Assembly: GCF_044324875.1 (NCBI RefSeq)
Contig: NZ_CP172185.1
Length of the DNA stretch: 64,000 nt
Origin: Escherichia coli
GTDB lineage: Bacteria > Pseudomonadota > Gammaproteobacteria > Enterobacterales > Enterobacteriaceae
Reading direction: 5' to 3' (one strand)
Part shown: positions 20,087 to 57,782 of the stretch, piece by piece
How positions within the stretch are numbered: position 1 is the stretch's first letter
Layout: each line of letters opens with the position of its first letter
Translations under genes and position numbers: made by a program
The notes under the pieces: generated by a model
Told to the model about the DNA's origin: nothing
Seen by the model: only the letters and a program-made list of their open reading frames with translations
Databases searched by the model: none

Positions 20087-20108
20087 GAAAAAAGGCCGCA
20101 GAGCGGCC
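20087..20108. repeat. attL core, direct repeat gaaaaaaggccgcagagcggcc
   Basis: Identical 22-mer at 57761-57782; seen in sequence. Confidence 0.7.
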
Positions 20109-20200
20109 ATAATTGCAATCAAAAATCAATAATTTAAATACTTATCAATCACTTAAGAACACATTAAAATACAAGCAACCACGCAAAACGACGTGAATGT

Positions 20201-20218
20201 GGTCACTTTGTGGATCAT
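20201..20218. repeat. 18-bp repeat ggtcactttgtggatcat inside prophage left arm (possible integrase arm-type site)
   Basis: 17/18 match to 57705-57722 in same orientation; functional role is inference. Confidence 0.3.
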
Positions 20219-20631
20219 TCGTCCCCTTCTTTCTCTTTGTTCTGTTGAACGCTAATTGCGACACACGTAGCAATCAAATCTTTACATTTCTCCATATCTT
20301 CTGTCTTGCGCAACTTGATGCTTGCCACCGATTGTGGATTATCCGCTGTGGCACAATGCATTGTTATTTCAATGTCGTTTCGATGAAAGAGTCCCATAAT
20401 AGCTTTTGCAACCTCCGTCCCTTTTTCCGCGATATCAAAGATCAAAGCAAGTTTATACAAAATATCACCAGAAAAACACTCAACCCTGCTAAGACCAACA
20501 TCACATAATGAAAAATATTGCTCAACGTCCCCCTGGAGTTCGGGAGCACACACAATATCTATTTTTCCGTACTGGCCTGAATAAAAGTCACTATTAACTG
20601 TTTTTTTCACAACATCCTCCTTCTTCAGCAA
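20215..20631 (-). CDS. hypothetical acidic protein at prophage left end (C-terminal region paralogous to ORF 56096-56311)
   Basis: 138-aa ORF overlapping 3' end of int; FHRNDIEITMHC...IKLRKTEDMEKCKDLI resembles FRRNDIEIELHF...VKLRHARDVQACQCLI. Confidence 0.55.
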   Translation of the reverse strand: MLKKEDVVKKTVNSDFYSGQYGKIDIVCAPELQGDVEQYFSLCDVGLSRVECFSGDILYKLALIFDIAEKGTEVAKAIMGLFHRNDIEITMHCATADNPQSVASIKLRKTEDMEKCKDLIATCVAISVQQNKEKEGDE

Positions 20632-21595
20632 TTGGATTAAACCTCACCGCATCCTGCAAATAATCCGGTGCAAGATGGGCATAAATCATCGTTGTCTGAA
20701 TCTTTGCGTGCCCCAGAATTTTCTGGAGCGTCAGAATATTGCCGCCGTTCATCATGAAATGACTGGCGAAAGTGTGGCGCAGCGCGTGAACGGCCTGCCC
20801 GTCAGGAATGGAAGGGGCAACCGCTTTTATCGAATCGCGCACCAGTGAATAATCCAGCGCCGGAAATACCAGCTTTCCGCCCCGTTTTTTAATTTTGTCA
20901 AACAGGCTTTCAGAAATTGGAACAGTCCGGTTTTTACTGTTTTTGGTTCTGGAAAATGTGATCCGGGAATGCAGAACGCGGCGCTGTTCAAGTGCCACCA
21001 CCTCACCCCATCGCGCCCCGGTAGATAAAAGAATTTCAGTAGCTAGCCGTTCGTCGGGATGCTCTACCAGAACGTCAAGCAGCTGGAGGCACTCCTGCCT
21101 GTTCAGATACCCCATTTCGCGCTCGCTGACCTTCATCCCTTTCAGTCCGCTAACAGGGTTATCATTCTGGAAGTGACCGGATGAGATGAGTGCGGAAAAC
21201 ATCGCGCTAAGCGCACCAACCTCGCGGTTTATGGTACTTGGCTGAATCCCCTCCTCCGCTCTTGCCACGCGTAATTCCGTTAACGTGGTGGCGTTGACGT
21301 TGTTAACACGCGGATCCCCCATCGCTTCACACACGCGCTGTAATTTGAGGCGTGTGTTCCACCCCGATTTCATCAGTTGCCCGTGAAACTTCCACCATAA
21401 TTCGATAAGTTCGGACAACGAACGGCGATCGGTCGGCGCACTGTTCCATGCGTTATTTTGGTGTTGAGCTAAAACCCAGCGTTCGAACTGGATAGCCTCC
21501 GACTTTGTTTTGAACTTTTTACGAATGCGTTTACCTTTGCGCCCATCAGGACGCATATCAACCATGTAGCCACCAGGGATTGATTTTATGCTCAT
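20594..21595 (-). CDS. int: tyrosine-type site-specific integrase (P2 Int-like)
   Basis: Translation MSIKSIPGGYMVDMRPDGRKGKR...; C-terminal ...HALRHTFASHFMMNGGNILTLQKILGH...YAHL catalytic region; start chosen at ATG 21595 inside longer ORF. Confidence 0.9.
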   Translation of the reverse strand: MSIKSIPGGYMVDMRPDGRKGKRIRKKFKTKSEAIQFERWVLAQHQNNAWNSAPTDRRSLSELIELWWKFHGQLMKSGWNTRLKLQRVCEAMGDPRVNNVNATTLTELRVARAEEGIQPSTINREVGALSAMFSALISSGHFQNDNPVSGLKGMKVSEREMGYLNRQECLQLLDVLVEHPDERLATEILLSTGARWGEVVALEQRRVLHSRITFSRTKNSKNRTVPISESLFDKIKKRGGKLVFPALDYSLVRDSIKAVAPSIPDGQAVHALRHTFASHFMMNGGNILTLQKILGHAKIQTTMIYAHLAPDYLQDAVRFNPIAEEGGCCEKNS

Positions 21596-21644
21596 TGGCA
21601 TACCCCCAGCGTCACAAGCCCACCGTGCCCCCAGCGTTCCATAA

Positions 21645-21953
21645 TCAGCCGTGCAGTGTGCCAGTCTTGCGGACTTTTTGAGAAGGTGATGTGCTTTCTG
21701 GCCCATCAGGGGAGAGAGTCGGGCTGATCTGCCCAGCAGCCTCGTTTGTTTTTCCCGTCATGAGCCAATTCATGTACTTAAAAAAACGAGGATGATTAAC
21801 AATCTTGACGAGAGCTTCGCCGCCGACATTCTCAATCCGACCTGTCTCATAACGGCGTAGAGTACCGATAGGTACATCAATCAGTTCACAAAACTCTTCA
21901 CGCGTTAACCCTTCCGACTCACGAATTACTCTGATTTTTTCACCAATAAACAT
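21645..21953 (-). CDS. immunity repressor (P2 C-like HTH protein)
   Basis: 102-aa HTH protein upstream of int and divergent from early operon; recalled resemblance to P2 C. Confidence 0.7.
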   Translation of the reverse strand: MFIGEKIRVIRESEGLTREEFCELIDVPIGTLRRYETGRIENVGGEALVKIVNHPRFFKYMNWLMTGKTNEAAGQISPTLSPDGPESTSPSQKVRKTGTLHG

Positions 21954-21992
21954 TGACAGTGTTCCTATCAGTACAGTATTCTTGATTTCAAG

Positions 21993-22010
21993 GTGTACTT
22001 ATAAGTACAC
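21993..22010. promoter_or_regulatory. perfect 18-bp palindrome GTGTACTTATAAGTACAC in the repressor/early divergent intergenic region (putative operator)
   Basis: Seen in sequence; flanked by a second inverted repeat gtattcttg...caagaatac. Confidence 0.5.
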
Positions 22011-22050
22011 AAGAATACAAATAGCCACAGACTGGAAAGGTTACCACATC

Positions 22051-22329
22051 ATGACAAAAGTCTTGAACACATACGGGGAGACGGACTTCAACAAGCTGGC
22101 GGCAATGTACCCCTACCGTGATGAGCATGGACTGCCAGTTCTTGAGGAAAGCCTTGAGGACTACGCCAAACGAACCAATCAAGCCCTGAACACTGTTAAA
22201 AAACAGGTCGACAGAGCGCAGATCCCTATAAATCAGCATAAAAAAGGCGGGAAACGCACAGTAAATCTCTACGCAATTTTTCTGAAAACCATCATAAACG
22301 CAGAGAAATATGTACTCATGACGAAATAA
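22051..22329 (+). CDS. first early gene, Cox/Apl-position small protein (function uncertain)
   Basis: 92-aa ORF from ATG 22051 divergent from repressor; positional analogy only, no recognised similarity to P2 Cox. Confidence 0.4.
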   Translation: MTKVLNTYGETDFNKLAAMYPYRDEHGLPVLEESLEDYAKRTNQALNTVKKQVDRAQIPINQHKKGGKRTVNLYAIFLKTIINAEKYVLMTK

Positions 22330-22359
22330 CTATTTTCCGCAAATAACGAGGGCAACAAC

Positions 22360-22575: not shown

Positions 22576-22883
22576 TGCGAAAACATTATTCACAACCATA
22601 TATCCGTAACAGTGCGCCACGCAGCAATAACCGCTGGAGCCTGCGCGAAACACACGCAACACCGGGCGGTCACGTTGTAAAACAAACTGGCGAACACACC
22701 TGGCTGATTGAGCAGGCTGGACTCGTGATCCACAGATGTAACCGCAATCCGTTTACCGGAAACCGCATCTTTGCGCTGAGCAGCGGCGACAACCAGTTCG
22801 GGCAGGATTTCACGCTACACGAAGCCCTGCGAACTGCCGACCGCTTAATTGCGGGGCGCAGCTTTCAGCACCCGGATTATTAA
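22575..22883 (+). CDS. hypothetical early protein
   Basis: 102-aa ORF, start overlaps previous stop. Confidence 0.45.
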   Translation: MRKHYSQPYIRNSAPRSNNRWSLRETHATPGGHVVKQTGEHTWLIEQAGLVIHRCNRNPFTGNRIFALSSGDNQFGQDFTLHEALRTADRLIAGRSFQHPDY

Positions 22884-22922
22884 AAGTCGGCTTAATAAGC
22901 CGTGAACCAGTCTTAATAAGAC

Positions 22923-23180
22923 ATGAGAGGCGATAAGATGAAAAGAGCCTACAAAGAAATCGCTAACGACATACTTCAGAATTATCACCTAACCCTTGCA
23001 AACGAGGGTGTCGCCTATGATGAGCAATCGTTCCGCGCAATGCAGGGTGGGATTCTTGGGCTGTATATCGCCGCCACAGCCAGCGGCGACCTCGAAGCGC
23101 TGGCAGAATTAAAGGTTATCTATCCGAAAGAACTTGGCGAAGACCTGATTAAACCCTATCTCATTGAGGAGCTGGCATGA
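22923..23180 (+). CDS. hypothetical early protein
   Basis: 85-aa ORF (alternative start MKRAYKEI at 22938). Confidence 0.45.
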   Translation: MRGDKMKRAYKEIANDILQNYHLTLANEGVAYDEQSFRAMQGGILGLYIAATASGDLEALAELKVIYPKELGEDLIKPYLIEELA

Positions 23181-25131: not shown

Positions 25132-25454
25132 GCAATCACCATGTACACACAAAAAAACCGCTTGCAACAACAAACCGGAACAGGGTACGCTTCCCCCGCA
25201 CCTCATAAAGCGGGTGCCGGGTTTCGCAGCCTGCTGACTAGCAAAGCGCACAACCGCGCCAGCGGTTTTTTTGTGCGTACTGTATTGCCACGTCTTTTTC
25301 GCATCAGAATTATGGTGGGGCGTACGGGGCCGACTTCGGTCGGGCCGGTTTCTTCGTTTGCCGGTGTTGAGAACCCCGTACGTCTCGCCACCCCGAGATT
25401 CTCAACTCTGGTTGGTGAGTATCCAAAAACTCACAAACGAAGAGGCCAAACACC

Positions 25455-25673
25455 ATGGCAAACCGCAAACAGCGCCGCGCTATCGCTGCGCAGCGTCACA
25501 TCCAGACCGAAATCAACCGCAGACTCTTCCGCGCCCACAACATCGCGCGAATCATGCACGCCAACATGCTGCATGAACGCAGTAACGCGTTATCAAACCT
25601 CTATTCCGCTTCCGTTTTCAGCTATCTGGCGGACGACCTGCGCGAGCTGCAAGACCTCATTAACCAGCACTGA
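25455..25673 (+). CDS. hypothetical early protein
   Basis: 72-aa basic ORF. Confidence 0.45.
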   Translation: MANRKQRRAIAAQRHIQTEINRRLFRAHNIARIMHANMLHERSNALSNLYSASVFSYLADDLRELQDLINQH

Positions 25674-26117: not shown

Positions 26118-28292
26118 ATGGAGTTCGTCAGAGACTGGCAAAAACCGCGCCCCGCTATCGGGCGCGAAGGCTTACCCGTACCTGAAACCGCACTGGATAC
26201 CATCCTGAAGTGTTACCGCGCGGACGAAGAGCGCGCCCTGAACGCTGAAGAGCAGGGTCATCCGCTTGCGGGCACAACCATCGGTAACGCGATCGACAAG
26301 TGGGAAGGCGCACAGGAGCGCCAGGAAGAGGCCATCACGCTCACACAGGAAGCGAAGAGACGCCCACCCACCCTCATTGAGGAAACCCTCAAAGAGCTGG
26401 ACACCCTGCCAAAGTGGTTGAGGCTGCCACTGATTAAGTACCTGAACTTCTTAAGGCGCAAACAGGAGGACGAACAGCAGAAAGGCAAGCGCGGCAAGGA
26501 CACCCGCAAATATGAGCGCTTCCTGAAAAACGGCATCCCCGCACGTCTTCGCCGTATTCGTGAGATTAACGCTCGCTTTGCACCGTTAAGTTTTCAGGCC
26601 GCTGCCATGCGCGAGAGTCTGGAAGAGTTAATCACACTGCCGAACCTGAGCCGTGAACGCATCCAGAAAATAGCCGTACTGCTTGCCAGCGCCGTTAAAA
26701 TGCATCTTGCCGACGCAATGGACAAGGCCCGCGAAATAACAGGGAACGACAAAGACGACAACCTGAACAACTGGCTGATTGCCTACCAGTATATTGGTCG
26801 CCGTGTCCTGAAGCTGGGGATCACCCCACCATACTGGAGCGCCCTTGAACTCCGTCCCGACCGCAGAAGCCCCCCGGACCTGACACTGGTACCGGGCGCT
26901 GTTTTGCGCCTGAACGACGCCGAATGGTGGAATAAAAAACTTCGCCAGATGCACGACGTCTGGCGTGAGGAACTTTTACGTGCAGCGGGCCTTGTATCCC
27001 GCCAGACCTCCATTTATGTGAGCCGGGAAGCGCTGGCAGACTTCCGCGAGAAACAGGCCCGTACCCGCGATTTTCTCAAAGCGCACGACGTGGAGAACGA
27101 AGACGGCGAACGCATCAGCCTGGAAGATATCTACTACGCCAGTACATCCAACCCGCATAACCGCCGCAACGAGATGATGGCGTGCGTCAAGGGAATGGAG
27201 CTTATCGCACAGGAACGTGGCGACGTGGCCTTCTTCGTCACGGTCACAGCCCCGTCTCGTTTTCACAGCGTCACCGACGCCGGTACCCTTAACCCGAAAT
27301 ACAAAGGCACAACAGTAAAAGACGCCAGCGACTATCTGGTTTATAACTTCTTCGCCTCCGCCCGCAAACTCATCAAAAAAGAGAAGCGGGGCTGGTACGG
27401 CATTCGCACCGTGGAGCCTCACCACGACGGCACGCCCCACTGGCACATGCTGGTATTCACAAGCCCCGAGAACGAAGCGCGCATCACGGAAATCATGTGC
27501 AATGCCGCCATCCGTGAAGACCGTGCAGAGCTGGGCGACGACATTACCCCGCGCTTCAAGTGCGAGAAGATAGACCCCGAAAAAGGTACGCCAACCAGCT
27601 ACATCGCCACCTACATCGGCAAAGGCATTGACGCCGCCGCATTCGGCGACACGGATCCCAAAACAGGCAAACCGCCCGTTGACCACGAAAGCGGAAAACC
27701 TATGGCGGACACCGTGGAAAACGCCGTCGCCTGGGCACGCCTGCATCGCATTCGCCAGTTCCAGTTCTTTGGCCTTCCCTCACGTCAGGTGTGGCGCGAG
27801 TTCCGCCGCCTTGCCGGACAAATGGCACGCAACCCGAAGGGGCCGCAGGCACTGACCAACCCCAAAGCCGACGCCCTCCTTGTTGCAGCCGATACGGGGT
27901 GTTTTGCCAGCTACATCATGCATCAGGGCGGTGTGCTCATTCCCCGCAGTGAATATCTGGCCCGCACGGCCTACGTCACCGCAGAAGAGCCGAACAACTA
28001 CGGCGAGTTCCCCGACCGTATTTACGGTGTACGGATGCCGGAACTGGGCGATGAGTTCACGTTATGTACCCACCCGGAAGAGTGGAAAATCGTCAGAAAG
28101 GAACCGGAACCAGACAACCGCACGGGCGAGGGTTTTGACCTTCAGGGCGACCCCGTCGCCCCTTGGACTCGTGGCAATAACTGTCACCCTGACGAAAAAA
28201 ACAACCAACAACAGCACACAAACAGAACAGTCAGAGTGGGCAAAACTGCCCCCCTTACCCCCATCGTCGGACGGTTTTGTGAGCTGGTTTAA
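26118..28292 (+). CDS. replication initiation endonuclease (P2 gpA-like rolling-circle Rep)
   Basis: 724-aa ORF with HxH metal motif (PHWHMLVF) and downstream Tyr-containing ...YIATYIGKG...; P2 gene order. Confidence 0.85.
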   Translation: MEFVRDWQKPRPAIGREGLPVPETALDTILKCYRADEERALNAEEQGHPLAGTTIGNAIDKWEGAQERQEEAITLTQEAKRRPPTLIEETLKELDTLPKWLRLPLIKYLNFLRRKQEDEQQKGKRGKDTRKYERFLKNGIPARLRRIREINARFAPLSFQAAAMRESLEELITLPNLSRERIQKIAVLLASAVKMHLADAMDKAREITGNDKDDNLNNWLIAYQYIGRRVLKLGITPPYWSALELRPDRRSPPDLTLVPGAVLRLNDAEWWNKKLRQMHDVWREELLRAAGLVSRQTSIYVSREALADFREKQARTRDFLKAHDVENEDGERISLEDIYYASTSNPHNRRNEMMACVKGMELIAQERGDVAFFVTVTAPSRFHSVTDAGTLNPKYKGTTVKDASDYLVYNFFASARKLIKKEKRGWYGIRTVEPHHDGTPHWHMLVFTSPENEARITEIMCNAAIREDRAELGDDITPRFKCEKIDPEKGTPTSYIATYIGKGIDAAAFGDTDPKTGKPPVDHESGKPMADTVENAVAWARLHRIRQFQFFGLPSRQVWREFRRLAGQMARNPKGPQALTNPKADALLVAADTGCFASYIMHQGGVLIPRSEYLARTAYVTAEEPNNYGEFPDRIYGVRMPELGDEFTLCTHPEEWKIVRKEPEPDNRTGEGFDLQGDPVAPWTRGNNCHPDEKNNQQQHTNRTVRVGKTAPLTPIVGRFCELV

Positions 28293-28329
28293 GTCGCTTA
28301 AGAGGCCGGACAGGAAAAAACTACAAAGA

Positions 28330-28608
28330 TTGCTCAAAAAACGCACCGAAGAGAGTCGCCAGAACGCCAGCGGCGGCACCGACACACCCACCGACACCAT
28401 TAACCTGGGCGTTGTGCTGCCGGAACTGCCGGAAATCGTGCAAGTCCGCCGCGATCTGGAAGCGCTGGGCGCGGACTTCCCCGAAGCAATGGCCCATTCC
28501 GTCTTTATGGGTGCCCGCGTTCGTCTGGGTGACGGTCGCACCGTTCACCGCGACGAGCAGACCGGGCGCATCACCGTCACCAGTCTGCAACCGGAGGCGA
28601 AACCATGA
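28330..28608 (+). CDS. small ORF after gpA (possible TTG start; alternatively ATG 28489)
   Basis: Open frame from gpA stop to 28608, stop overlaps next gene start; start codon unresolved. Confidence 0.3.
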   Translation: MLKKRTEESRQNASGGTDTPTDTINLGVVLPELPEIVQVRRDLEALGADFPEAMAHSVFMGARVRLGDGRTVHRDEQTGRITVTSLQPEAKP

Positions 28609-29015: not shown

Positions 29016-29278
29016 AAAGAATCGCCGGAACTGACTACCAGGAGCTGCTTAAAGCGGTGGAAAACTACCGTTCAGCGCTGGTGTGGTGTGAGATTAAGCC
29101 CTGTGACCCGGGAGCAGTTAAGGATTGCAACCGGGCGCGTGAGGACATTCAGCGCGTAATTGGCTACCGCTATGTAGCAGCCATTATTGACCTTGTGAAT
29201 GAACTGGAGGAAGCAAAAGAGCGCATCGCAGAACTGGAAACCCAGAATAACCCCAACCAGCAGGAGCAGAAGCCATGA
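29012..29278 (+). CDS. hypothetical protein (accessory island gene 2)
   Basis: 88-aa ORF, overlapping start/stop. Confidence 0.5.
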   Translation: MKRIAGTDYQELLKAVENYRSALVWCEIKPCDPGAVKDCNRAREDIQRVIGYRYVAAIIDLVNELEEAKERIAELETQNNPNQQEQKP

Positions 29279-29856: not shown

Positions 29857-29870
29857 TCCCCCACAGTAAA

Positions 29871-29895
29871 ACAGCCCGACCGGGCTGTTTTTTTA
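29871..29895 (+). terminator. intrinsic terminator (acagcccgaccgggctgt + T7)
   Basis: Seen in sequence after the 29275-29856 ORF. Confidence 0.6.
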
Positions 29896-30748: not shown

Positions 30749-30794
30749 TTACCCCTCCTGCTAAACATCGGTTTATTTTTTAATTTGCTGCCGG

Positions 30795-30821
30795 TGATAA
30801 AAAACGGCGGGTCGCCCCGCC
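30795..30821 (-). terminator. hairpin ggcggg-gcga-cccgcc + T6 immediately after the RelE-like stop
   Basis: Seen in sequence (reverse complement of 30795-30821). Confidence 0.45.
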
Positions 30822-45841: not shown

Positions 45842-45852
45842 GCGAGGTACTC

Positions 45853-49395: not shown

Positions 49396-49908
49396 GCTCT
49401 GCGTTCCCGCTGCGAAGGGCCGCCCGCTCACGCCAGGCGACCACCTCGCCGGGATCCATCAGGAAGATTTCAGCGGGAGACCAGTTGAAAATAACGGCGA
49501 TATCCGCCACAAAGTCTTCAATATGCTCAAAGGGCACGACGGTTATCAGCCTGCCGTCGCCGCCACGCTCTTCCCGCCAGAGTCCTGACCGGCCAAAAAA
49601 TTAACCGCCACCCCGCACAGCTGAATAAAATCAGCGGACCCCATGCGCTTAAGCAGAACCTCGTCCAGTCGCGGCGAAGTGACGCGCGGGAGTAACTCAA
49701 ACATCGCGTCCGTTTTCATGTTCAGCACGTCAAGCAGTGACAGCCCGCGCAGTGAACCGGCCTGCTGTACAGCAGGCGTGATTTCCACATACGTGATTTT
49801 TTTGTTACCGAGCACAAGGGGCGTTTTCAGCGTCACGCCGCGCTCACTGGTCACGTCCGCCGCATCAGCACCGTCAGTAACAGGGGCAACAACCGGATTT
49901 TCTTTCAT
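49382..49908 (-). CDS. tail assembly chaperone E' (E+E' product via programmed -1 frameshift)
   Basis: Slippery heptamer T TTT TTG (minus strand; plus-strand CAAAAAA at 49594-49600); -1 frame stays open to 49382, overlapping tape measure start. Confidence 0.5.
49546..49908 (-). CDS. tail assembly chaperone E
   Basis: 120-aa ORF between tube and tape measure genes; ends shortly after slippery TTTTTTG. Confidence 0.75.
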   Translation of the reverse strand: MKENPVVAPVTDGADAADVTSERGVTLKTPLVLGNKKITYVEITPAVQQAGSLRGLSLLDVLNMKTDAMFELLPRVTSPRLDEVLLKRMGSADFIQLCGVAVNFLAGQDSGGKSVAATAG

Positions 49909-49958
49909 GCATAAAACCTCAAATCAGGGGGCGACGCCGCGCGCCGCCGTGGAAAACA

Positions 49959-50477
49959 TTAACCACCAAGACCAATCGCCGAGCGCACGCGGTCCGGGAA
50001 GACGCTTTTGCCGTCCTTGCGTTCGATGTGGTTCAGTAAATCAATCTCCAGCACCGGACGGTCGTTAATGCTGAGTTTGTAGTAGGTACTTTTGACCGCA
50101 TAGGTGTGAGACGTGACCTCACCCTGTTTGGCCTCCCCGGTATCAATTTCCGTCACGCGACCGCGAAGCTCAATCTCGTACAGGTCACTCTGTTCTTCAT
50201 CGTTGTAGTACTCACCGACAAAGCGCAGCAGCGTACCGTCAATCGTTCCGCCGTACTTGAGGAACAGTTCGCGGGTCGGCCCGCCCATGGTGAAACTCGC
50301 ATCCAGCGCGCCGTCATCCAGGCCAAGGTCGATATTTACTGCACCGGCCATACCACCACCGCGATAGGCTTCCGTTTTACGGGTCAGTTTGGGGGGCGTG
50401 AAGCCGGTCACCCTGCCAATCTGGTTCACCCCGTCAGTAAACAGCGTGAACACCCTGAGATTTTTTGGTACGGCCAT
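49959..50477 (-). CDS. tail tube protein (FII)
   Basis: 172-aa ORF, start overlaps sheath gene stop. Confidence 0.85.
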   Translation of the reverse strand: MAVPKNLRVFTLFTDGVNQIGRVTGFTPPKLTRKTEAYRGGGMAGAVNIDLGLDDGALDASFTMGGPTRELFLKYGGTIDGTLLRFVGEYYNDEEQSDLYEIELRGRVTEIDTGEAKQGEVTSHTYAVKSTYYKLSINDRPVLEIDLLNHIERKDGKSVFPDRVRSAIGLGG

Positions 50478-50805
50478 TAAGCACCTCCAAGCGTCGCAAA
50501 TGCAGGACCAAAGAATTCATCAGTAAACGTCTGGTAAAGTTCCATATCCTCAAGCGGCGGAACGGGCGTGTACTTGTAGCGGATACGCACGCGTCCCTGA
50601 CGAAGTTCCGTGGTGCTGTTATCCACCACGTCATACCAGCACTCCGCACCAACGAGACGTCCTGACGTAACCAGCGCATCCAGTTTTGCGCGAATTGCGC
50701 TTAACACGTCTTTCACATTAGCAGGGGTCAGCGGGGCATCAATCGTTTCAAACTGCGCTTCCGCAACAGAATCAGCCAGCACCTGATGCAAAATGGCATC
50801 TGAAT
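50477..50805 (-). pseudogene. tail sheath (FI) C-terminal fragment, separated from N-terminal part by an IS
   Basis: Frame ...AIDSDAILHQVLADSVAEAQF...RIRYKYTPVPPLEDMELYQTFTDEFFGPAFATLGGA ends where tube gene starts; 5' boundary approximate. Confidence 0.6.
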
Positions 50806-50988
50806 CGATCGCAGTTTGGCATTCGAATCGATCATGATTTGGCATCCATCTCCGATCACAGTTTGGCATCACAATCGATCACGATTTGGCATGCTTCCGA
50901 TCATTGATTGGCATCCTGCCAGTCACTCCGGGAATTAACTCTTTTCACCACAGTCTCCATTGCCGTGTTTAAACCAGTGGAGACGTCA

Positions 50989-52554
50989 ATGTCCAGAAAG
51001 AGAAAATCCAGGAGCACTATGGAAACCTGTTTTAAGATCCTTCAGCTCAAGTTCGACAAGAAGCTGACTAACCGTTGTATCGGACTGACGTTACACATCA
51101 GCGCCTCAACCGTTTTTGAGGTTCTTGCCCGCTTCAAAGCCTCTTCTCTGTCATGGCCATTACCTGCTGATATATCCCATGACACGCTGGAGAAACTCAT
51201 TTTTCCGCCCAAAGACACCTTTGCATCAGAGCTTGTAATGCCTGACATGTTGTACTTCGATACGGAAATGAGAAAACCAGGTGTGACGCGGCAACTGTTG
51301 TGGATGGAATACAAGGCACAGGCGGGTAACAAAGCGATGGGATACTCGCACTTCTGCCGTTGCTACCGGGAGTGGAAAAAAACGCGACGTCTCTCCATGC
51401 GCCAGGAGCATCGTGCCGGCGAAAAGCTTTTTATCGACTTCTGTGGTCCTACGGTTCCTGTTATTAATCCGGACACCGGTGAGATACGCCGCGTGGCAAT
51501 CTTCGTGGCCGTAATGGGGGCGTCCAACTATACCTACGTTGAAGCGTGCGAAGGTCAGGACATGATGTCATGGTTAAATGCCCACAGCCGTTGCCTGACC
51601 TTCCTGGGCGGCGTACCGAAGCTGCTCATCCCCGATAACCTCAGAAGCGCAGTGAAAAAGGCCGATCGATATGAGCCTGTCATCAACGACAGTTATCAGG
51701 CACTGGCTGAGCACTATGGCACGGTTATCATCCCGGCCCGACCACGCAAACCTAAAGATAAACCAAAAGCAGAAAACGGCGTCCTCATCGTTGAACGATG
51801 GCTTCTTGCCCGCATCCGTAATGAAACCTTCCACACGCTCAGGGCGCTGAATGCGCGCCTTAGGGAGTTACTGACAGACATGAATAACCGGCCAATGAAG
51901 GGGTACGGCAATCAAACCCGTGCAGAACGCTTCCGCATACTGGATGCGCCAGCACTCTCTCCGCTGCCTCTGGCACCTTATGAATACACGGAATACAAAG
52001 CTGTGAAGGTTGGCCCTGACTACCACGTTGAATATGCCCGTCACTGGTACTCCGTTCCACACGAACTGGTCGGTCAGCGTCTGTCACTGAAGGCGGGGCA
52101 GTCGGTGGTACAGCTCTGGCACAAGGGGCAGTGTGTGGCGCAACATCCGCGCAGCACACATGAATATAAACACACAACCAATCCGCTTCACATGCCAGAG
52201 CGCCACCGGCAGCACGGGACATGGACACCGGAACGCCTGATCGAGCAGGGAAAACGTACGGGCCCGTCCACAGGCCGGGTGGTTGAATCCATGCTGAAGG
52301 CAAAACCCCATCCGGAACTGGCTTATCGTGCAGTTCTGGGGCTGCTGGCACTTCAGAAAAAATACGGCCCGGAACGGCTGGAAAAGGCCTGTTACGTTGC
52401 CCTGCACTATAACGCCCCTGACAGACGCTTTATCGACAATCTGCTGCGTCACCATCGGGAGAACCTGGAGCTTCCATTATCCCGCCAGGGCGAACAACAT
52501 CCGGCATATGCTTCAGAGCATGAAAACCTGCGTGGTCCGGGCTACTACCACTGA
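50989..52554 (+). CDS. istA: IS21-family transposase IstA
   Basis: N-terminal HTH, DDE-type central region; start taken at MSRKRKSRS (ATG 50989). Confidence 0.85.
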   Translation: MSRKRKSRSTMETCFKILQLKFDKKLTNRCIGLTLHISASTVFEVLARFKASSLSWPLPADISHDTLEKLIFPPKDTFASELVMPDMLYFDTEMRKPGVTRQLLWMEYKAQAGNKAMGYSHFCRCYREWKKTRRLSMRQEHRAGEKLFIDFCGPTVPVINPDTGEIRRVAIFVAVMGASNYTYVEACEGQDMMSWLNAHSRCLTFLGGVPKLLIPDNLRSAVKKADRYEPVINDSYQALAEHYGTVIIPARPRKPKDKPKAENGVLIVERWLLARIRNETFHTLRALNARLRELLTDMNNRPMKGYGNQTRAERFRILDAPALSPLPLAPYEYTEYKAVKVGPDYHVEYARHWYSVPHELVGQRLSLKAGQSVVQLWHKGQCVAQHPRSTHEYKHTTNPLHMPERHRQHGTWTPERLIEQGKRTGPSTGRVVESMLKAKPHPELAYRAVLGLLALQKKYGPERLEKACYVALHYNAPDRRFIDNLLRHHRENLELPLSRQGEQHPAYASEHENLRGPGYYH

Positions 52555-52570
52555 CAGAAGGAACAACAGT

Positions 52571-53326
52571 ATGAGTGATAACCTGTTAAACAAACTGACC
52601 CAACTGAAACTCCCGGCGATGGCCGGGAGCCTGATACGGCAGCGGGAAACGCCTCAGACCTACGACGAACTGTCGTTCGAGGAAAGGCTGACGCTGCTGG
52701 TTGATGACGAGCTTCTGAGCAGGGAAAACAGCCGTGTGGCACGGTTGAGAAAAAATGCCGGCCTGAAATACCAGGCAACACCGGAAGGGCTGCGCTATCC
52801 GGCCTCAAGAGGTCTGCGGGCTGAACAGATGAGAGAACTGCTGAACGGCCACTACATAACCCACAGGAAAAACCTGCTGATAACCGGTCCGACAGGATGT
52901 GGCAAGAGCTGGATAGCCAATGCGCTGGGCGAACAGGCATGTCGACAGAAACACAGCGTCCGGTACTGTAGAACCGGGCGATTACTGGAACAACTGGCTC
53001 AGGGACGTGTTGATGGCAGCTGGCTGAAATATCTGAAACAGTTGCAAAAAATACAGGTTCTAATCCTGGACGATCTGGGGCTGGAACAGTTAAGTAACGC
53101 CCAGTGTAATGACCTTCTGGAGCTCATAGAGGATCGTTACGGACAAAGCAGCACGATAGTGGTAAGCCAGTTCCCGGTAGATAAATGGCATGGTCTGATG
53201 GAGAACCCAACAACAGCAGATGCCATCCTGGACAGACTGGTACATAACTCACACCGAGTGGTCCTTCAGGGAGAGTCACTGAGGAAAAATCCCCCGGTAG
53301 TGGAAAGCAGCGAAAAAACGCGTTAA
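52571..53326 (+). CDS. istB: IS21-family helper ATPase IstB
   Basis: Start MSDNLLNKLTQLKLP; Walker A GPTGCGKS, Walker B ILDDLG. Confidence 0.9.
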   Translation: MSDNLLNKLTQLKLPAMAGSLIRQRETPQTYDELSFEERLTLLVDDELLSRENSRVARLRKNAGLKYQATPEGLRYPASRGLRAEQMRELLNGHYITHRKNLLITGPTGCGKSWIANALGEQACRQKHSVRYCRTGRLLEQLAQGRVDGSWLKYLKQLQKIQVLILDDLGLEQLSNAQCNDLLELIEDRYGQSSTIVVSQFPVDKWHGLMENPTTADAILDRLVHNSHRVVLQGESLRKNPPVVESSEKTR

Positions 53327-53409
53327 AAAGCGGTAGAAAAAGTTAAGTTCCCGGTTGATCGAATGGATGCGAATCGCTGATCGGACTTCGATGCCAATCC
53401 GTGATCGAA

Positions 53410-54406
53410 TAGAGCGGAATACGCACACCTGAGCGGTTCGCGTGTACACCTCAAAGATATACGCCTTCGTTTCCGGCGTACGGTTGCCCCAGAAGCGGAA
53501 ACCGTTACGGCGAATGATGGTGGTGATTTCCTTGTTGTTGAGATTGTTGGCATCGCTGTCTTCGGACTGAAGGGACCAGAACACCGGGCTGGAAATACCC
53601 AGCACATTTCTTACCGGCACGTTGGACAGCGATTTATGCCAGCCCTGTTCGTGGTCAATACGTGCACGTAAACCGCAGGCGTACGCCGCAGCCGGGAAGA
53701 CCTCATTAGCGCCGGATTTCGGGTTATGGGCGATGAAGTCAGGCCAGAGCAGCATAAGTTCGCGCTCGTTAAATCTGGCGCGGTAGCTGATTGCATCAGC
53801 GGGCTTCTTGCAGTTGTGACAGCCCGCGTAGACAAATGCGCGAAGTTTTTCTGCAATTACACACAGGGATTTTGTGACAGCTTCAGTATCCAGTCCGGGC
53901 GCTGCGATGATGCGCGGACGGTAACCGATGGCATCATCCTGTTCAGCTATCAGAAGTGCATACATACCGGTATAATTACCGTCGCCATCCGTGCCACCAA
54001 TGACATACTGGTCCTGCGTTTTGTGTGGGTATACAGGATGTGCATCTTCAGACTCATCAATACCAAAAAATGCCCTGTCTTCAGGATCCAGATGACCGAA
54101 TGATGTAACTCCTGTATCCGGGGCGCCCTGAGAACTGGCATCAGGAACGCGCACCACAATCACCTTCGTGCTCACCTGGTCGGCGACAGCCTTAAGCGAT
54201 TTGTAAAGCGTCCCCTTTGTGCCGGCCTTACCCAGCACATCACTGACGCGGGTCAGCAGTGTGGGTTTGTTCAGCGGGAACAGAGTTTCATCCGCGTCAT
54301 CTGCCGTAGCCACAATACCAATAACACTGGAATCCACATCATTAATGGCGGTGGCAAGGCCGGTACTTTCCCTTACGCGCGCACCATGAAAGCGTGTTTC
54401 ACTCAT
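53410..54406 (-). pseudogene. tail sheath (FI) N-terminal fragment interrupted by IS
   Basis: Start MSETRFHGARV at ATG 54406; frame runs into IS right end where translation becomes IS-derived. Confidence 0.65.
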
Positions 54407-54566: not shown

Positions 54567-55658
54567 ATGACCGACCTGTTAATCAACGTTCCGTCACCGG
54601 ATATCGAAATCACCATCAACAACAACAGACTCCGTAACGTCACGGAGCGGCTCATGACGCTGTCACTGACCGACAACCGGGGCTTTGAGGCGGACCGCGT
54701 CACCCTGACCATTGACGACGCGGACGGGCAGCTTCAGCTGCCACAGCGCGGCGCACGCCTGAACGTGATGATTGGCTGGCGCGGGGAGGCGCTGGTTAAC
54801 AAGGGTGTCTACATCGTTGATGAAGTGACGTGGGAAGGCCCGCCGGACAAACTGACCATCACCGCCAGCAGCGCCGATTTTCGCGAAGAGTTCAACGTGA
54901 AGCGTGAAGTCTCCTGGCACGACGTGACGGTAAAACAGGTTGTGTCAGCCATCGCGCACCGCTACGGCCTGAAAGCACAGATAAGCGATATCCTCATGGA
55001 TATCGAAATTGACCACGCAGACCAGACCGAAGAGAGCGATATATCCTTCCTGACCCGCATGGCTGAAATGCTGGGTGCGATTGCCACCGTAAAAAACGGC
55101 AGCCTGTTATTCATTCTGCCGGGTGGCGGAACCGGGCCGGACGGAAAAGCCCTGCCTTCGTTCGCCATTACCCGCAGCAGCGGCGACAGTCACCGCTTTC
55201 GCATTGCTGACCGTGATGCGTATACGGGGGTCCGGGCGCACTGGCTCGATCTGAAGTTCGGGCAAAAGAAAAAAGTGAACGTGAAGCGACGCAGGGAAGC
55301 CGGGAAACAGAAACAGGAGAAGAGCAGCAGCCGGGAAGGTGATTACATGGAGGGCGCGGAAGGGAACGTCTACGTTCTGCGCAGGACTTACCAGAATGAA
55401 GAAACCGCACGACGTGCAGCAGCTGCAAAGTGGCAGGAACTACAGCGGGGCGCGGCATCATTCTCCATCACGCTGGCGCGCGGTCGTGCCGACCTGTACC
55501 CTGAAATGCACGGCAGGGTAACAGGTTTTAAAAGCGAGGTGGACAATCAGGACTGGATTATTGCCAGGGTGGAGCACAGCATAGATGAAAGCGGCTTCAC
55601 CACACAACTGGAGCTGGAAGCGAAAATCCCCGAATGGATAGCAGATTCAGGCGGATAA
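54567..55658 (+). CDS. late control/tail protein D
   Basis: 363-aa ORF directly upstream of ogr-like gene, as in P2. Confidence 0.85.
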   Translation: MTDLLINVPSPDIEITINNNRLRNVTERLMTLSLTDNRGFEADRVTLTIDDADGQLQLPQRGARLNVMIGWRGEALVNKGVYIVDEVTWEGPPDKLTITASSADFREEFNVKREVSWHDVTVKQVVSAIAHRYGLKAQISDILMDIEIDHADQTEESDISFLTRMAEMLGAIATVKNGSLLFILPGGGTGPDGKALPSFAITRSSGDSHRFRIADRDAYTGVRAHWLDLKFGQKKKVNVKRRREAGKQKQEKSSSREGDYMEGAEGNVYVLRRTYQNEETARRAAAAKWQELQRGAASFSITLARGRADLYPEMHGRVTGFKSEVDNQDWIIARVEHSIDESGFTTQLELEAKIPEWIADSGG

Positions 55659-55701: not shown

Positions 55702-55953
55702 ATGTTCCGTTGTCCCCTGTGCGGTGCATCCGCACGTATCCGCACCAGTCGCAATGAAAATGATTCAGGCACAGTTCGCCTGAAGTACTACCAGTGCAAT
55801 AACCTCGAATGCGGGATCGGCTTTACCACACTGGAGGGTTTTAACAAATTCACATCAAAACGCGCCCCGTCGCCGCAGGGTACAGAGCGGATACCGTGGG
55901 AAGATTTTCCGGGATCTCACAGGGGGAATGCTCAGATGAATCTTGATATTTAA
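55702..55953 (+). CDS. ogr: Ogr/Delta-family zinc-finger late transcription activator
   Basis: MFRCPLCG...YYQCNNLECG Cys4 arrangement; position after D. Confidence 0.8.
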   Translation: MFRCPLCGASARIRTSRNENDSGTVRLKYYQCNNLECGIGFTTLEGFNKFTSKRAPSPQGTERIPWEDFPGSHRGNAQMNLDI

Positions 55954-56097: not shown

Positions 56098-56311
56098 ATT
56101 CTTTTGTGGTTATGGGGTCATCAGGAACCACGTGCAGATTATATTTTTGTTTTTTTGGCGTTCCTCCGGCAGCAACGAGTTCATCAATAAGACACTGACA
56201 CGCCTGAACATCCCGGGCATGTCTTAGTTTCACCTTTATTGATTTAACCTTATCCTCACCGGAGGAGAAATGCAGTTCAATCTCAATATCGTTTCTTCGG
56301 AACAATCTCAT
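56096..56311 (-). CDS. hypothetical small protein, paralogous to C-terminal half of ORF 20215-20631
   Basis: 71-aa ORF with RBS AGGGGGG; similarity noted by eye. Confidence 0.5.
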   Translation of the reverse strand: MRLFRRNDIEIELHFSSGEDKVKSIKVKLRHARDVQACQCLIDELVAAGGTPKKQKYNLHVVPDDPITTKE

Positions 56312-56580
56312 ACGCCCCCCTGAATATATCAGAAATGCTAGTATCGAAAAATGAGAAAACAGTTAGACAGGAGAAACATATTAACACAAATCATTTATAC
56401 CTATAGATGAAATTATAATTTCATTCATGAATATGATAGATAACTATATTGTGAACAAAATGAAAAATGGCTAAATTAAAAATGGGCATGGAGGAATGCC
56501 TCGTAATCAGTAATACATGATCCATACTTCCTTGTTTTGCCCGCCGGAAAGCGGGCATTTTTTTGGCGGTTACCATCGCC

Positions 56581-56765
56581 TCACCTTCCTGGTTCACACA
56601 AAGCAACCCTGATTTTCCATGAAAACTTCAGGGTTGAGCCAAAAGCACAAAGACAGTAGATTAACCAAGGGTACCCGCCACCTGCCAACAGGAACGGTAT
56701 CCAGTACGTATTAATGACTGACAATTCACATTGCTGTTTTGCCCGCCAGAAGGTGGGCATTTTTT
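56581..56765 (+). repeat. repeat unit 2 (~203-bp period) ending in intrinsic terminator, candidate small RNA
   Basis: Near-identical to unit 3 with scattered substitutions; terminator stem 56740-56757 + T-run. Confidence 0.35.
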
Positions 56766-56783
56766 TGGCAGTTATCATGGACG

Positions 56784-56968
56784 CACCTTCATGACACATA
56801 TTAAGCAGACCTGATTTTTCCATGAAAAATTCATGGTTGAGACAAAAGCACAAAAACAGTAGATTAACCACGGGTGCCTGCCACCTGACAACAGGAAGGG
56901 GTGTCCATTATCCATGATATACAAACGAAAAGTCTTGTCTTTTGCCCGCCGTTGCGCGGGCTTTTTTT
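56784..56968 (+). repeat. repeat unit 3 ending in intrinsic terminator, candidate small RNA
   Basis: As unit 2; terminator stem 56943-56960 + T8 overlaps hicB stop. Confidence 0.35.
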
Positions 56969-57366
56969 TATCCAAGAACCCTGTCTGCAGCAACACGCGC
57001 CAGAAATCCAGAGCGGCTACCGTATTCAGGATGAGACTCAACGAACTGATCAATGCGACGAATAAGCAGAGATGGCAGGGTAACATTGATTTTTTCCGAT
57101 TTCCCCATCAGGCGGGACACATCCACCTCAACGAGCGCCCACACTGCATCACTGTATTCAGGATCTGATTGCCATTCATCAAGATTTGTAGCGACAGGGA
57201 TAGACTCACCAGATTCAACCAGTAATTCTACGTGTGCCTCAATGGCTTCACGGGCACTGTCTACCGCATCCTGAAAACTATCACCGCCAGAAAAACAGCC
57301 GGGCAGATCTGGGACGCGAACACCAAAAGATGAATCCCCCCGGTCAATAGCGATTGCATATAACAT
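56968..57366 (-). CDS. hicB: HicB-family antitoxin
   Basis: MLYAIAIDRGDSSFGVRVPDLPGCFSGGDSFQDAVDSAREAIEAH... typical HicB N-domain; C-terminal RHH-like tail. Confidence 0.8.
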   Translation of the reverse strand: MLYAIAIDRGDSSFGVRVPDLPGCFSGGDSFQDAVDSAREAIEAHVELLVESGESIPVATNLDEWQSDPEYSDAVWALVEVDVSRLMGKSEKINVTLPSLLIRRIDQFVESHPEYGSRSGFLARVAADRVLG

Positions 57367-57388
57367 TGAGACCTCCAGAAGGTGGGGC

Positions 57389-57568
57389 TTACAGCCCCGC
57401 CTGTTTCTTAATACTTTTTAAAGTTGGTAAAGGTATATCTTTTTGAGGGTGTTTTACCGTTACCAGCCCCTTCTTTGTCGGATGTTTGAATTGATGATGA
57501 CTCCCCTTAACCCTAACAAGATACCATCCATCCGCCTCTATCATTGCTATTGCACTTTTGCTATCCAT
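57389..57568 (-). CDS. hicA: HicA-family toxin (59 aa; absent from ORF track)
   Basis: Manual translation of minus strand: MDSKSAIAMIEADGWYLVRVKGSHHQFKHPTKKGLVTVKHPQKDIPLPTLKSIKKQAGL; 20 bp upstream of hicB. Confidence 0.75.
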   Translation of the reverse strand: MDSKSAIAMIEADGWYLVRVKGSHHQFKHPTKKGLVTVKHPQKDIPLPTLKSIKKQAGL

Positions 57569-57704
57569 CCCCCCGTACTCCGTCTTTCGTTGTTGGAGTT
57601 ATTATAACCCCAACAACTAGTCAAAGCAAGGGTTCGGAGTTATTAGAGTTATAGAATAATTGACTGCCTCCCCAAAACTGCGGCAAGAAAAAACCACTGA
57701 CCAC

Positions 57705-57722
57705 GGTCAATTTGTGGATCAT
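57705..57722. repeat. 18-bp repeat ggtcaatttgtggatcat inside prophage right arm
   Basis: 17/18 match to 20201-20218. Confidence 0.3.
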
Positions 57723-57760
57723 GAATTAATTTTTATTTATAAATCAATGCATTATACAAA

Positions 57761-57782
57761 GAAAAAAGGCCGCAGAGCGGCC
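57761..57782. repeat. attR core gaaaaaaggccgcagagcggcc (part of ihfA terminator hairpin)
   Basis: Identical to 20087-20108; followed by T-run, i.e. intact terminator after ihfA. Confidence 0.7.

Follow-up and report, generated by a model that had tools for sequence, protein, structure and literature searches.

Gene content of the insert between btuC and ihfA

The window, i.e., the whole 64-kb stretch of Escherichia coli DNA that was analysed, contains btuC (19045–20025, minus strand; NCBIfam NF003001, 575 bits versus a cut-off of 334) and ihfA (57800–58099, minus strand; TIGR00987 himA, 182 bits versus a cut-off of 120) as the left and right chromosomal flanks of about 37.7 kb of phage DNA, as stated in the original prediction. 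The DNA bracketed by a direct repeat belongs to a P2-family phage and comprises about 35.0 kb without an IS element. The prophage has a GC content of 55%, compared to 50–51% in the flanks, and the left flank (1–20108) runs colinear with that of O26:H11 (98% identity). Assignment to the P2 family was confirmed by the genes between the repeats, which encode an integrase, portal, terminase, P2-family capsid, sheath, tube, tape measure, gpD and ogr. The prophage of F374 is about 99% identical along most of the length and differs in four swapped modules: the accessory genes between attL and int, 22871–23174, 29032–29889, and the tail fibre module 43360–45416.

As in P2 and Wphi, the int-C/cox arrangement adjoins the attachment site. 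The gene for the C-type immunity repressor with a helix-turn-helix (21645–21953, minus strand; phrog_147, E 4.5e-31; 100% identical to the F374 protein) is divergent to that of a Cox/Apl-like DNA-binding protein (22051–22329, plus strand; phrog_11533, E 1.5e-47). The latter also matches phrog_575, "Cox-like excisionase and repressor", albeit weakly (E 2e-6), and is presumed to be the excision directionality factor. isrK-like and C4 antisense RNA genes (25198–25395, plus strand) were matched by Rfam RF01394 (64.7 bits) and RF01695 (79.2 bits), both above the gathering scores. Downstream of them, an ORF of 72 aa (25455–25673) carries the name "derepression protein" from the annotation of a 100% identical F374 protein, and is followed by the gene for a gpA-type replication endonuclease (26118–28607, plus strand; phrog_91, E 8e-216), the frame of which is broken. 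The interval between gpA and the portal gene holds a RelE-like toxin with an HTH partner (30374–31094, minus strand; phrog_1213 and phrog_7241), annotated in F374 as HTH protein and RelE family toxin. A toxin-antitoxin pair, hicB (56968–57366) and hicA (57389–57568), both on the minus strand and encoding proteins 100% identical to HicB and HicA of F374, adjoins attR with hicA; it had no match in the NCBIfam or PADLOC models. Both pairs are accessory (non-essential) genes.

The portal (32248–33303; TIGR01540, 210 bits versus a cut-off of 166) and the large terminase (33303–35054), both on the minus strand, were assigned as a pair by phrog_68/phrog_5751. They are followed on the plus strand by scaffold, P2-family major capsid and small terminase (35209–37998; TIGR01551 major_capsid_P2, 233.5 bits versus a cut-off of 219.65), with proteins 98–99% identical to those of F374, and by a block (38101–45353) in which tblastn with annotated F374 proteins located head completion, tail X, lysis, tail completion, baseplate V/W/J/I, tail fibre (43795–44910) and fibre assembly. 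An inverted tail block on the minus strand (45395–50786) comprises gpU, the tape measure (45853–49431), gpE/E', the tail tube (49959–50477) and the 3' part of the sheath gene (50477–50786), while the 5' part of the sheath gene (residues 1–327; phrog_23, E 8e-84) is located at 53426–54406 on the same strand. The genes for the gpD late control/tail protein (54567–55658; phrog_52, E 2e-152, for gpD/ogr) and for an Ogr/Delta-type zinc-finger late activator (55702–55953), both on the plus strand, encode proteins that are 100% identical to "late control D" and "ogr/Delta-like zinc finger" of F374.

The prophage is P88-like (Xuanwuvirus, Peduoviridae) rather than a canonical P2. Of the isolated phages, P88/Xuanwuvirus matched best at the nucleotide level (about 77–78% identity). 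The matches, in the same orientation, include the replication gene, the portal-terminase-capsid module and a portion of the tail block, but with megablast no more than about 34% of the first 24 kb and 9% of the last 14 kb were covered. In contrast to P2, the sheath-tube-E-T-U block is inverted, and unlike P2 and Wphi the prophage has accessory genes between ogr and attR.

IS21-family insertion and gene A frameshift

The insert was at first taken to be phage DNA throughout; this holds for the P88/Xuanwuvirus-like genome, but 2.6 kb belong to an IS21-family element. This ISSso4-like element of 2639 bp (50787–53425, plus strand) encodes istA and istB (IstA, 284 bits versus a cut-off of 160; IstB, 257 bits versus a cut-off of 200), is bounded by TG...CA with repeated motifs at the termini, and interrupts the sheath gene at codon 326/327. 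It is flanked by the 7-bp target-site duplication CACCTGA (50780–50786 on the left, 53426–53432 on the right), which is present only once at the corresponding position of the uninterrupted F374 sheath gene. When the 427-aa F374 sheath was used for tblastn, residues 1–327 and 326–427 mapped to opposite sides of the element. Copies of the IS with 99.8% identity are present at other places in many E. coli genomes, and none of 5426 complete E. coli genomes has it in the sheath gene.

Gene A shows a +1 frameshift due to an extra A in an A-run (28189–28195). Compared to the 829-aa gene of F374 there is a single 1-nt indel, and tblastn gave a match in two frames. As it lies in a homopolymer, the frameshift could be a sequencing error. 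Both the insertion and the frameshift distinguish the copy in the window from F374.

Because the IS splits the tail-sheath gene and gene A is frameshifted, the prophage is most likely defective and would not form infectious particles. Excision may still be possible, with int and cox intact. The prophage might instead be fully functional and inducible, with IS and frameshift being assembly or sequencing artefacts or tolerated; int, C and cox are intact, as are all remaining genes (96–100% identical to F374), and the A7 homopolymer is a typical site of errors. We consider this unlikely, since clean TG...CA ends together with a perfect 7-bp duplication at one point of a colinear sheath gene indicate real transposition and not misassembly, and since, with the sheath interrupted at residue 326 of 427, no full-length protein can be made.

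Attachment core, integrase and arm sites

An exact-match scan of the 64-kb window found GAAAAAAGGCCGCAGAGCGGCC at 20087–20108 and 57761–57782 only, both on the plus strand. A third copy was absent from the window when up to 2 mismatches were allowed, and none of 100 shuffled sequences contained a match. The predicted perfect 22-bp repeat is thus exact and present in two copies, but too short: identity extends 3 bases further to the left, giving the 25-bp sequence AAAGAAAAAAGGCCGCAGAGCGGCC at 20084–20108 (attL core) and 57758–57782 (attR core). It is also found at both ends of the prophages of F374 and O26:H11 11368. The attL core, at a distance of 58 bp from the btuC start codon, contains on the minus strand the hairpin GGCCGC-TCT-GCGGCC and TTTTTTCTTT. 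Between it and btuC, a consensus scan found a promoter-like site (20058–20086, minus strand; TTTTCA, 17-nt spacer, TAAAAT). As it lies on the bacterial side, this putative promoter stays in the lysogen.

The attR core, 18 bp from the ihfA stop codon, corresponds to the intrinsic terminator of ihfA (minus strand), where the STnc540 region has its 3' end. It had been proposed that the right copy forms this terminator together with the TTTTT that follows it on the plus strand. The hairpin does coincide with the terminator, but that T-run was rejected, because ihfA is transcribed from the minus strand; the T-run of the ihfA terminator is the complement of AAAGAAAAAA and lies within the repeat. On the ihfA strand, a terminator-like hairpin with T-run is present at both copies. 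A core resembling a GC hairpin with T-run is also known from the ogr-int interval of Wphi, while core sequence and host site differ from those of P2 and Wphi.

The integrase gene (20594–21556, minus strand; phrog_1, E 1.5e-73) encodes a P2/Wphi-type tyrosine recombinase, in which the motifs ...STGARWGE..., HALRHTFASHF and GHAKIQTTMIYAH were found. Identity is 46% to Int of P2, Wphi and L-413C across 98% of the length, and 83% to Int of the O26:H11 prophage at the same site. Within a collection of 50,697 records, no isolated phage has an integrase that is more than 58% identical; therefore this integrase family is known from prophages only, and P88-type phages presumably use other attachment sites. 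A small gene (20215–20631, minus strand; phrog_14142, E 3e-52) between attL and int is 70% identical to its O26 counterpart and had no match in PADLOC. It occupies a variable accessory position, where F374 has two unrelated genes.

Putative tandem arm-type integrase sites are present in both arms, aaTGTGGTCActTTGTGGATCAt with an 11-bp register in the P' arm (20196–20219, plus strand) and CCACGGTCAatTTGTGGATCAt in the P arm (57703–57724, plus strand); at the position equivalent to the latter, attR of O26 has AATGTGGACACATGGTGGAACA. TTTGTGGATCAT occurs only twice in the 64 kb, once per arm, and ATGTGGTCACTTTGTGGATC is invariant across three lysogens, with surroundings that are about 20% divergent. 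The layout is the same as in the Wphi attP, and P2 and Wphi likewise have tandem TGTGGxxCA-type repeats in an 11-bp register on each arm, but the arm motif is TGTGGTCA/TGTGGATCA here versus TGTGGACA there. Predicted matches to the IHF consensus (WATCARnnnnTTR, plus strand) are located in the P' arm (20124–20136 and 20143–20155) and between P arm sites and core (57742–57754, AATCAATGCATTA). The match at 20124–20136 is kept in three aligned attL sequences, and O26 attR has AATCAATCGATTA at equal offset to the match near the P arm.

No tRNA was found anywhere in the 64-kb window, in agreement with the suggestion that a terminator hairpin and not a tRNA serves as attB. This wording might imply that the substrate of the integrase is an extruded hairpin or folded single strand, as for integron attC or CTX-phi/XerCD, instead of a duplex core. 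A perfect 6-bp GC stem indeed dominates the core, A/T pairs lengthen it to 11 bp in attB, and a GC hairpin is also present between the arms of the Wphi attP. Nevertheless, such a mechanism is very unlikely: Int is an arm-binding tyrosine recombinase of the P2/lambda type, the combination of tandem arm sites with matches to the IHF consensus corresponds to a duplex intasome architecture, and paired core-type half-sites would appear as dyad symmetry. Moreover, the extended dyad is not kept in attP, which has ATAAT instead of TTTTT in its right half, so that duplex identity alone is common to both. We infer that attB functions as a dyad-symmetric duplex core.

Site occupancy and the proposed course of integration

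An empty-site construct, in which the junction was rebuilt with a single repeat copy and the insert removed, matched strain C4 with 100% identity over 1017 nt. Of 5426 complete E. coli genomes, 5120 contain it as one contiguous stretch. The insertion-free site thus carries the repeat only once, as predicted. The btuC-ihfA site is split in about 305 of these genomes, corresponding to an occupancy of about 5–6%, which shows that the insert is not universal in E. coli. A full-length homologue of int is present in 281 genomes (counted irrespective of genomic site, versus about 305 split sites), and two sampled genomes share the arrangement. O26:H11 11368 and the isolate F374 also have P2-like prophages at this site, and differing prophage variants with one integrase family form exactly identical junctions.

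The attachment site, including the 25-nt duplication, is already known: Oshima et al. 2008 (PMC2608844) described PP_SE11-4 of strain SE11 as a P2-like prophage of 35.8 kb that lies between btuC and ihfA and shows a duplication of 25 nt. By this published description it resembles the prophage in the window in site, duplication, P2-like type and size class (35.8 versus 35.0 kb). New points are the IS in the sheath gene, the gene A frameshift, the P88-like type, and the hicAB and relE-like accessory genes.

That the 37.7 kb are an ancestral segment with the 25-mer as a terminator or REP-like repeat, or arrived by homologous recombination or transposition, has next to no probability: the repeat is short and terminator-like hairpins are frequent in intergenic DNA, but the 25-mer has only two copies in the window and a single one in empty sites, and the insert is missing from 94% of genomes. 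Further arguments against it are the content, which is that of a complete phage with an integrase gene beside one junction, and the exactly equal junctions of different prophage variants with one integrase family.

Our data strongly support site-specific integration of a P2-family phage at the ihfA terminator, followed by decay of the prophage, as the best explanation. A temperate phage, with P88/Xuanwuvirus as nearest relatives, would have integrated by site-specific recombination into the intrinsic terminator directly 3' of ihfA and 58 bp upstream of btuC, using an attP core of 25 bp identical to the bacterial site. The integrase would bind the dyad-symmetric core as well as the tandem arm-type sites of each arm, with IHF probably bending the arms. 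Strand exchange, presumably inside the 25-bp identity, would leave one core copy per junction, and hence a second copy of the terminator at attL, between the int-side genes of the phage and the btuC promoter region. Insertion of the IS21-family element into the sheath gene and the +1 frameshift in gene A would represent later decay.

The bacterial site can also be viewed as the end of an sRNA. Westermann et al. 2019 (PMC6315103) reported STnc540 as a ProQ-dependent sRNA from the ihfA 3'UTR of Salmonella. In the empty E. coli site, Rfam RF02082 (STnc540) gave a single match of 67.4 bits from the ihfA 3' end to btuC, and the attB core corresponds to the family's terminator stem-loop with the U-tract. 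The RF02082 alignment shows that the Salmonella 3'UTR has about 45 nt more than that of E. coli. In the lysogen the match is divided between attR (43.1 bits) and attL (29 bits). In P2, the attachment site locI overlaps the sRNA gene cyaR at its 3' end; this would closely parallel the ihfA site. As hairpin and T-run are wholly inside the core, the ihfA terminator and the end of the 3'UTR sRNA are rebuilt at attR, where the STnc540 region is unaltered through the U-tract. Integration at this site would therefore preserve termination of ihfA transcription in the lysogen.

Junctions and occupancy of the insertion site

The inserted DNA is flanked on the left by btuC (19045–20025, minus strand) and on the right by ihfA (57800–58099, minus strand), both of which score far above their curated NCBIfam cut-offs. 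The left 20 kb of the window are colinear with the chromosome of E. coli O26:H11 (98% identity), and a Phe leader at 61554–61678 is consistent with the pheMST-ihfA region. GC content is 55% in the prophage versus 50–51% in the flanks. The 22-mer GAAAAAAGGCCGCAGAGCGGCC, which the original prediction described as a perfect direct repeat at the prophage ends, is present in exactly two copies in the 64 kb window (20087–20108 and 57761–57782). No further copies with up to two mismatches were found in the window, and none in 100 shuffles. The repeat is exact, but its true length is 25 bp: once extended, it reads AAAGAAAAAAGGCCGCAGAGCGGCC at 20084–20108 (attL) and 57758–57782 (attR). The inserted DNA amounts to 37,674 bp.

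An insert-free junction was built in silico by joining 19600–20108 to 57783–58290, which leaves one copy of the repeat. This junction was found in E. coli strain C4 with 100% identity over all 1017 nt, and the empty site of this strain contains the 25-mer exactly once. Among 5426 complete E. coli genomes, 5120 have the junction in contiguous form, defined as at least 80% of the query matching at a single location, while the btuC-side and ihfA-side flanks lie apart in about 305. Thus, neither an insertion-free junction lacking the repeat nor a segment of ~37 kb common to all E. coli is found, and the reading as an insertion between btuC and ihfA stands. The evidence for recombination consists of the attL and attR products together with the empty attB. 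A tRNA as integration target is ruled out, since no tRNA gene is present anywhere in the window.

The predicted ihfA terminator as core of the attachment site

Downstream of the ihfA stop codon the minus strand reads TCTGATCTAACTAAAAAGGCCGCTCTGCGGCCTTTTTTCTTT, with a 6-bp GC stem that is extended to 11 bp by A-U pairs and followed by a U-tract. The segment GGCCGC-TCT-GCGGCC followed by TTTTTTCTTT starts 18 nt past the stop codon on this strand. A terminator scan predicted a terminator at both core copies, and the predicted fold has an energy of −16.1 kcal/mol (z = −4.2). The repeat thus coincides with the ihfA terminator hairpin, as had been proposed. The T-run to the right of the right copy had also been assigned to the terminator, but this was a strand error, since ihfA is on the minus strand and both hairpin and U-tract lie inside the 25-bp core. 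The right copy retains the full predicted ihfA terminator; the left copy retains hairpin and U-tract and is missing only the upstream A-run. Judged from the sequence, ihfA termination would be unchanged by the insertion, and a duplicate terminator would be placed between btuC and the left-end phage genes (int and the ORF at 20215–20631, both minus strand). A promoter-like site (TTTTCA, 17-nt spacer, TAAAAT; 20086–20058, minus strand) on the bacterial side of attL would be retained. Nothing usable was found in the literature on the btuCED promoter, and the btuC promoter named here is a consensus match only.

The same region matches the Rfam model of the sRNA STnc540 (RF02082). In the empty site of strain C4 (locus L003, 1927–2085) a single match of 67.4 bits covers the whole interval between the ihfA 3′ end and btuC. 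The prophage splits this match: 43.1 bits, above the gathering score, remain at the right junction (57703–57858, minus strand), and the remainder at the left junction (20026–20147, minus strand) scores 29 bits. The att core corresponds to the terminator helix of the model, and the sequence at attR is unchanged through the U-tract. In Salmonella, STnc540 is a ProQ-dependent sRNA that is processed from the ihfA 3′ UTR and uses the ihfA terminator, and the homologous structure is treated there as the ihfA terminator (Westermann et al. 2019, PMC6315103).

The integrase (20594–21556, minus strand) is a P2/Wphi-type tyrosine recombinase with 46% identity to Int of Wphi, P2 and L-413C over residues 1–315 of 320 (98% of the length, E ~1e-72), and it matches phrog_1 (E 1.5e-73). 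Its sequence contains the motifs STGARWGE, HALRHTFASHF and GHAKIQTTMIYAH, which, as is usual in this integrase family, would hold the catalytic Arg, His-x-x-Arg, His and Tyr. The sequence TTTGTGGATCAT occurs once in each arm of the reconstructed attP and nowhere else in the 64 kb, each time as the second unit of a tandem pair with an 11-bp register. These tandem arm-type repeats are CCACGGTCAatTTGTGGATCA in the P arm (57703–57724) and aaTGTGGTCActTTGTGGATCA in the P′ arm (20196–20219). ATGTGGTCACTTTGTGGATC is invariant in three lysogens, while the neighbouring sequence differs by about 20%, and attR of the O26 prophage has AATGTGGACACATGGTGGAACA at the position equivalent to the arm site here. 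A match to the IHF consensus at 57742, between the P-arm sites and the core, is conserved in O26, and a consensus scan revealed two more in the P′ arm (20124 and 20143). Phage Wphi is organized alike in its ogr-int interval, where a GC hairpin followed by a T-run is bordered on each side by tandem TGTGGAC repeats.

From the arm repeats, the IHF-consensus matches, the P2-type Int and the Wphi-like plan we infer that integration proceeds through a standard arm-binding tyrosine-recombinase intasome. Int would bridge arm and core sites, and IHF would bend the attP arms. Strand exchange would fall within the 25 identical bp and probably span the middle of the GGCCGC-AGA-GCGGCC dyad, with the crossover overlap region expected within GGCCGCAGAGCGGCC, and the Cox-like protein (22051–22329) would direct excision. 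We see no reason to assume that the integrase recognizes an extruded hairpin, since the dyad symmetry has the look of paired core half-sites. P2 attB/cyaR would be a parallel to the attB described here; a literature search on it returned nothing usable.

Gene content and condition of the prophage

As assigned by PHROGs and NCBIfam, the inserted DNA holds a complete P2-family genome. Genes were identified for the integrase, a C-type repressor, the Cox-like protein and the gpA replication endonuclease, for lysis, baseplate and fibre, for sheath, tube, gpE, tape measure and gpU, and for gpD and an Ogr/Delta-type activator. The major capsid protein matches TIGR01551 (major_capsid_P2, equivalog) with 233.5 bits against a cut-off of 219.65. 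Together with the complete gene set, this confirms the predicted P2-family identity. The gpA protein is a rolling-circle replication endonuclease (phrog_91, E 8e-216). Portal and large terminase genes (32248–35054, minus strand) are divergent from those for scaffold, capsid and small terminase (35209–37998, plus strand), which were assigned by PHROGs, NCBIfam and comparison to the prophage of E. coli isolate F374. The Ogr/Delta activator and gpD genes adjoin the att end, and their products are 100% identical to proteins annotated as 'ogr/Delta-like zinc finger' and 'late control D'; against NCBIfam PRK09678, Ogr reaches only 40 bits, below the cut-off of 116. The NCBIfam models for HicA/HicB, terminase, gpD, gpU and baseplate J gave no match in the prophage, and the names of these genes therefore rest on PHROGs and on the RefSeq annotation of near-identical proteins.

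In the canonical Peduovirus order FI-FII-E-T-U share one strand with H-G and D; this order is not found here. Sheath, tube, E, tape measure and U (45395–54406) are encoded by the minus strand, opposite to the fibre genes and D, which lie on the plus strand. P88-like phages have the same sheath-to-U arrangement, whereas canonical P2 differs in strand. Because of this inverted, P88-like block the element belongs to the P2 family but not to the genus Peduovirus. The O26:H11 and F374 prophages at the same site share the minus-strand block, and the best nucleotide matches among isolated phages are P88 and its relatives (Xuanwuvirus), with ~77–78% identity over part of the genome only. The minus-strand ORF at 45853–49431 had been considered as a defence or accessory gene, but was dismissed since it encodes the tape measure protein (PHROGs). 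This protein is intact (1192 aa) with a repetitive, Pro/Val-rich C-terminal part, while the annotation of F374 lists its tape measure gene (locus L002, 33525–35300) as a truncated pseudogene, so that decay has affected different genes in the two near-identical prophages.

When checked against every annotated protein of the F374 prophage, all genes were intact except those for the tail sheath and gene A. An IS21-family element (ISSso4-like, 2639 bp, 50787–53425) splits the sheath gene at residue 326/327, so that the set of contractile tail genes is not intact. The element carries istA and istB in tandem (NF033546, 284 bits versus a cut-off of 160; NF038214, 257 versus 200), and its ends, TGCAAAATGG... 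and ...AATACGCA, form terminal inverted repeats of the TG...CA type, with GATC..TTGGCAT motifs repeated at both. It is flanked by a 7-bp target duplication, CACCTGA (50780–53432 inclusive). Many E. coli genomes have copies with 99.8% identity at other places, but in none of the 5426 complete genomes is the IS at this position in the sheath gene. In gene A, a run of seven A residues (28189–28195) replaces the six found in F374, resulting in a +1 frameshift near the 3′ end, between residues 693 and 715 of 829, that leaves the last ~110 codons out of frame. The extra A may represent either a true mutation or a sequencing error in the homopolymer. Considering both the split sheath gene and the frameshift in gene A, the prophage is most likely unable to produce infectious particles. 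Excision may still occur, as int, C and cox are intact.

Several segments vary among the relatives. Next to attR, in the slot between ogr and attR, the window has hicAB (56968–57568, minus strand), which is also present in F374; the same slot is filled by hok/gef in O26:H11 (locus L004, 15226–15366) and in strain EC12 (locus L006, 3598–3738), so that different toxin-antitoxin gene sets take the position beside the attachment site. A RelE-like toxin and its HTH partner (30374–31094, minus strand) lie in the gpA-portal interval, and the segment beside them (29032–29889) is exchanged versus F374, which has a DUF6516 gene there. The slot between attL and int holds a small gene with no assigned function (20215–20631, minus strand). 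Its C-terminal half (20230–20397, minus strand) resembles a 71-aa ORF downstream of ogr (56099–56311, minus strand; 37.5% identity over 56 aa, E 2e-8 by tblastn), which points to a weak paralogue pair near both ends of the prophage. In these three slots PADLOC gave weak HTH-type matches only, none convincing, and the claim of defence systems there was dropped.

An isrK-like RNA (25198–25272) and a C4 antisense RNA (25308–25395), both above the Rfam gathering score, are located directly upstream of a 72-aa ORF (module 25198–25673), to which a 100% identical protein is annotated as 'derepression protein'. The arrangement resembles an anti-repressor module of the P1/P7 type under antisense control, here placed within the early region of a P2-family phage. 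A His-Xaa-Ser radical-SAM system (hxsABCD) beside a shortened gpD-like gene (L004, 11125–14522) lies between gpD and ogr in O26:H11, and in this position EC12 carries genes for a SIR2-family protein and an ATP-binding protein (L006, 1–2722) that are defence-like in look, whereas the window has no gene there. Compared with the F374 prophage, which is otherwise 99% identical, tail fibre and fibre-assembly genes (43360–45416) are exchanged; the fibre has 371 aa here and 756 aa in F374, with 42% identity at the N-terminus only, which suggests a swap of a host-range module.

Relatives at the site and possible meaning for the host

The P2-like prophage PP_SE11-4 of E. coli SE11 is located at the same site, with the same repeat length of 25 nt (Oshima et al. 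2008, PMC2608844). By its position between btuC and ihfA and its duplicated 25 nt, the insertion described here fits this attB group. The F374 and O26 prophages have the identical 25-mer at their junctions, in O26:H11 strain 11368 at both ends. The P2-like prophage of the latter has an integrase with 83% identity to the one here, and the prophage of F374 (NZ_OY754371.1) is ~99% identical outside the IS and four exchanged modules. Of 5426 genomes, 281 have a full-length homologue of the integrase gene, close to the ~305 with a split site; two sampled genomes, 2017-03-3CC and EC12, have the same arrangement as the window. An identical prophage or strain elsewhere was rejected. The left junction matches other genomes with at most 89% identity over 1 kb, since the attL-side accessory genes are exchanged, and the right arm is common to only four genomes, none with an IS in the sheath gene. 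The prophage is thus an already known type, a member of a P2-family lineage in a published attachment site, and the original finding is correct in substance and ordinary.

The one reading with some novelty, a regulatory effect of the integration on the host through btuCED or the sRNA from the ihfA 3′ UTR, is improbable. If there were one, the 37.7 kb at the STnc540 terminator could abolish any read-through from ihfA to btuCED, and the altered sequence just past the U-tract could change termination efficiency or the stability of the sRNA 3′ end. This would represent lysogenic conversion affecting vitamin B12 uptake or the sRNA. The duplicate terminator at attL would then insulate btuC from int-side transcription, and the position of an IHF-dependent phage next to the gene for IHF-alpha could be more than coincidence.

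Beyond correct annotation the significance is small. What is gained are the exact boundaries (25-bp core, insert of 37,674 bp) and a correction of the strand on which the terminator reads. In addition, this copy is recognized as P88-like and probably defective, and the attB core is seen to coincide with the STnc540 terminator. The btuC-ihfA terminator is a recurrent, published site of one integrase lineage, occupied in ~5–6% of complete E. coli genomes. The overlap of its core with the sRNA terminator is a further case of the known tendency of phage integrases to target conserved dyad-symmetric 3′ ends of RNA genes and operons while rebuilding them.
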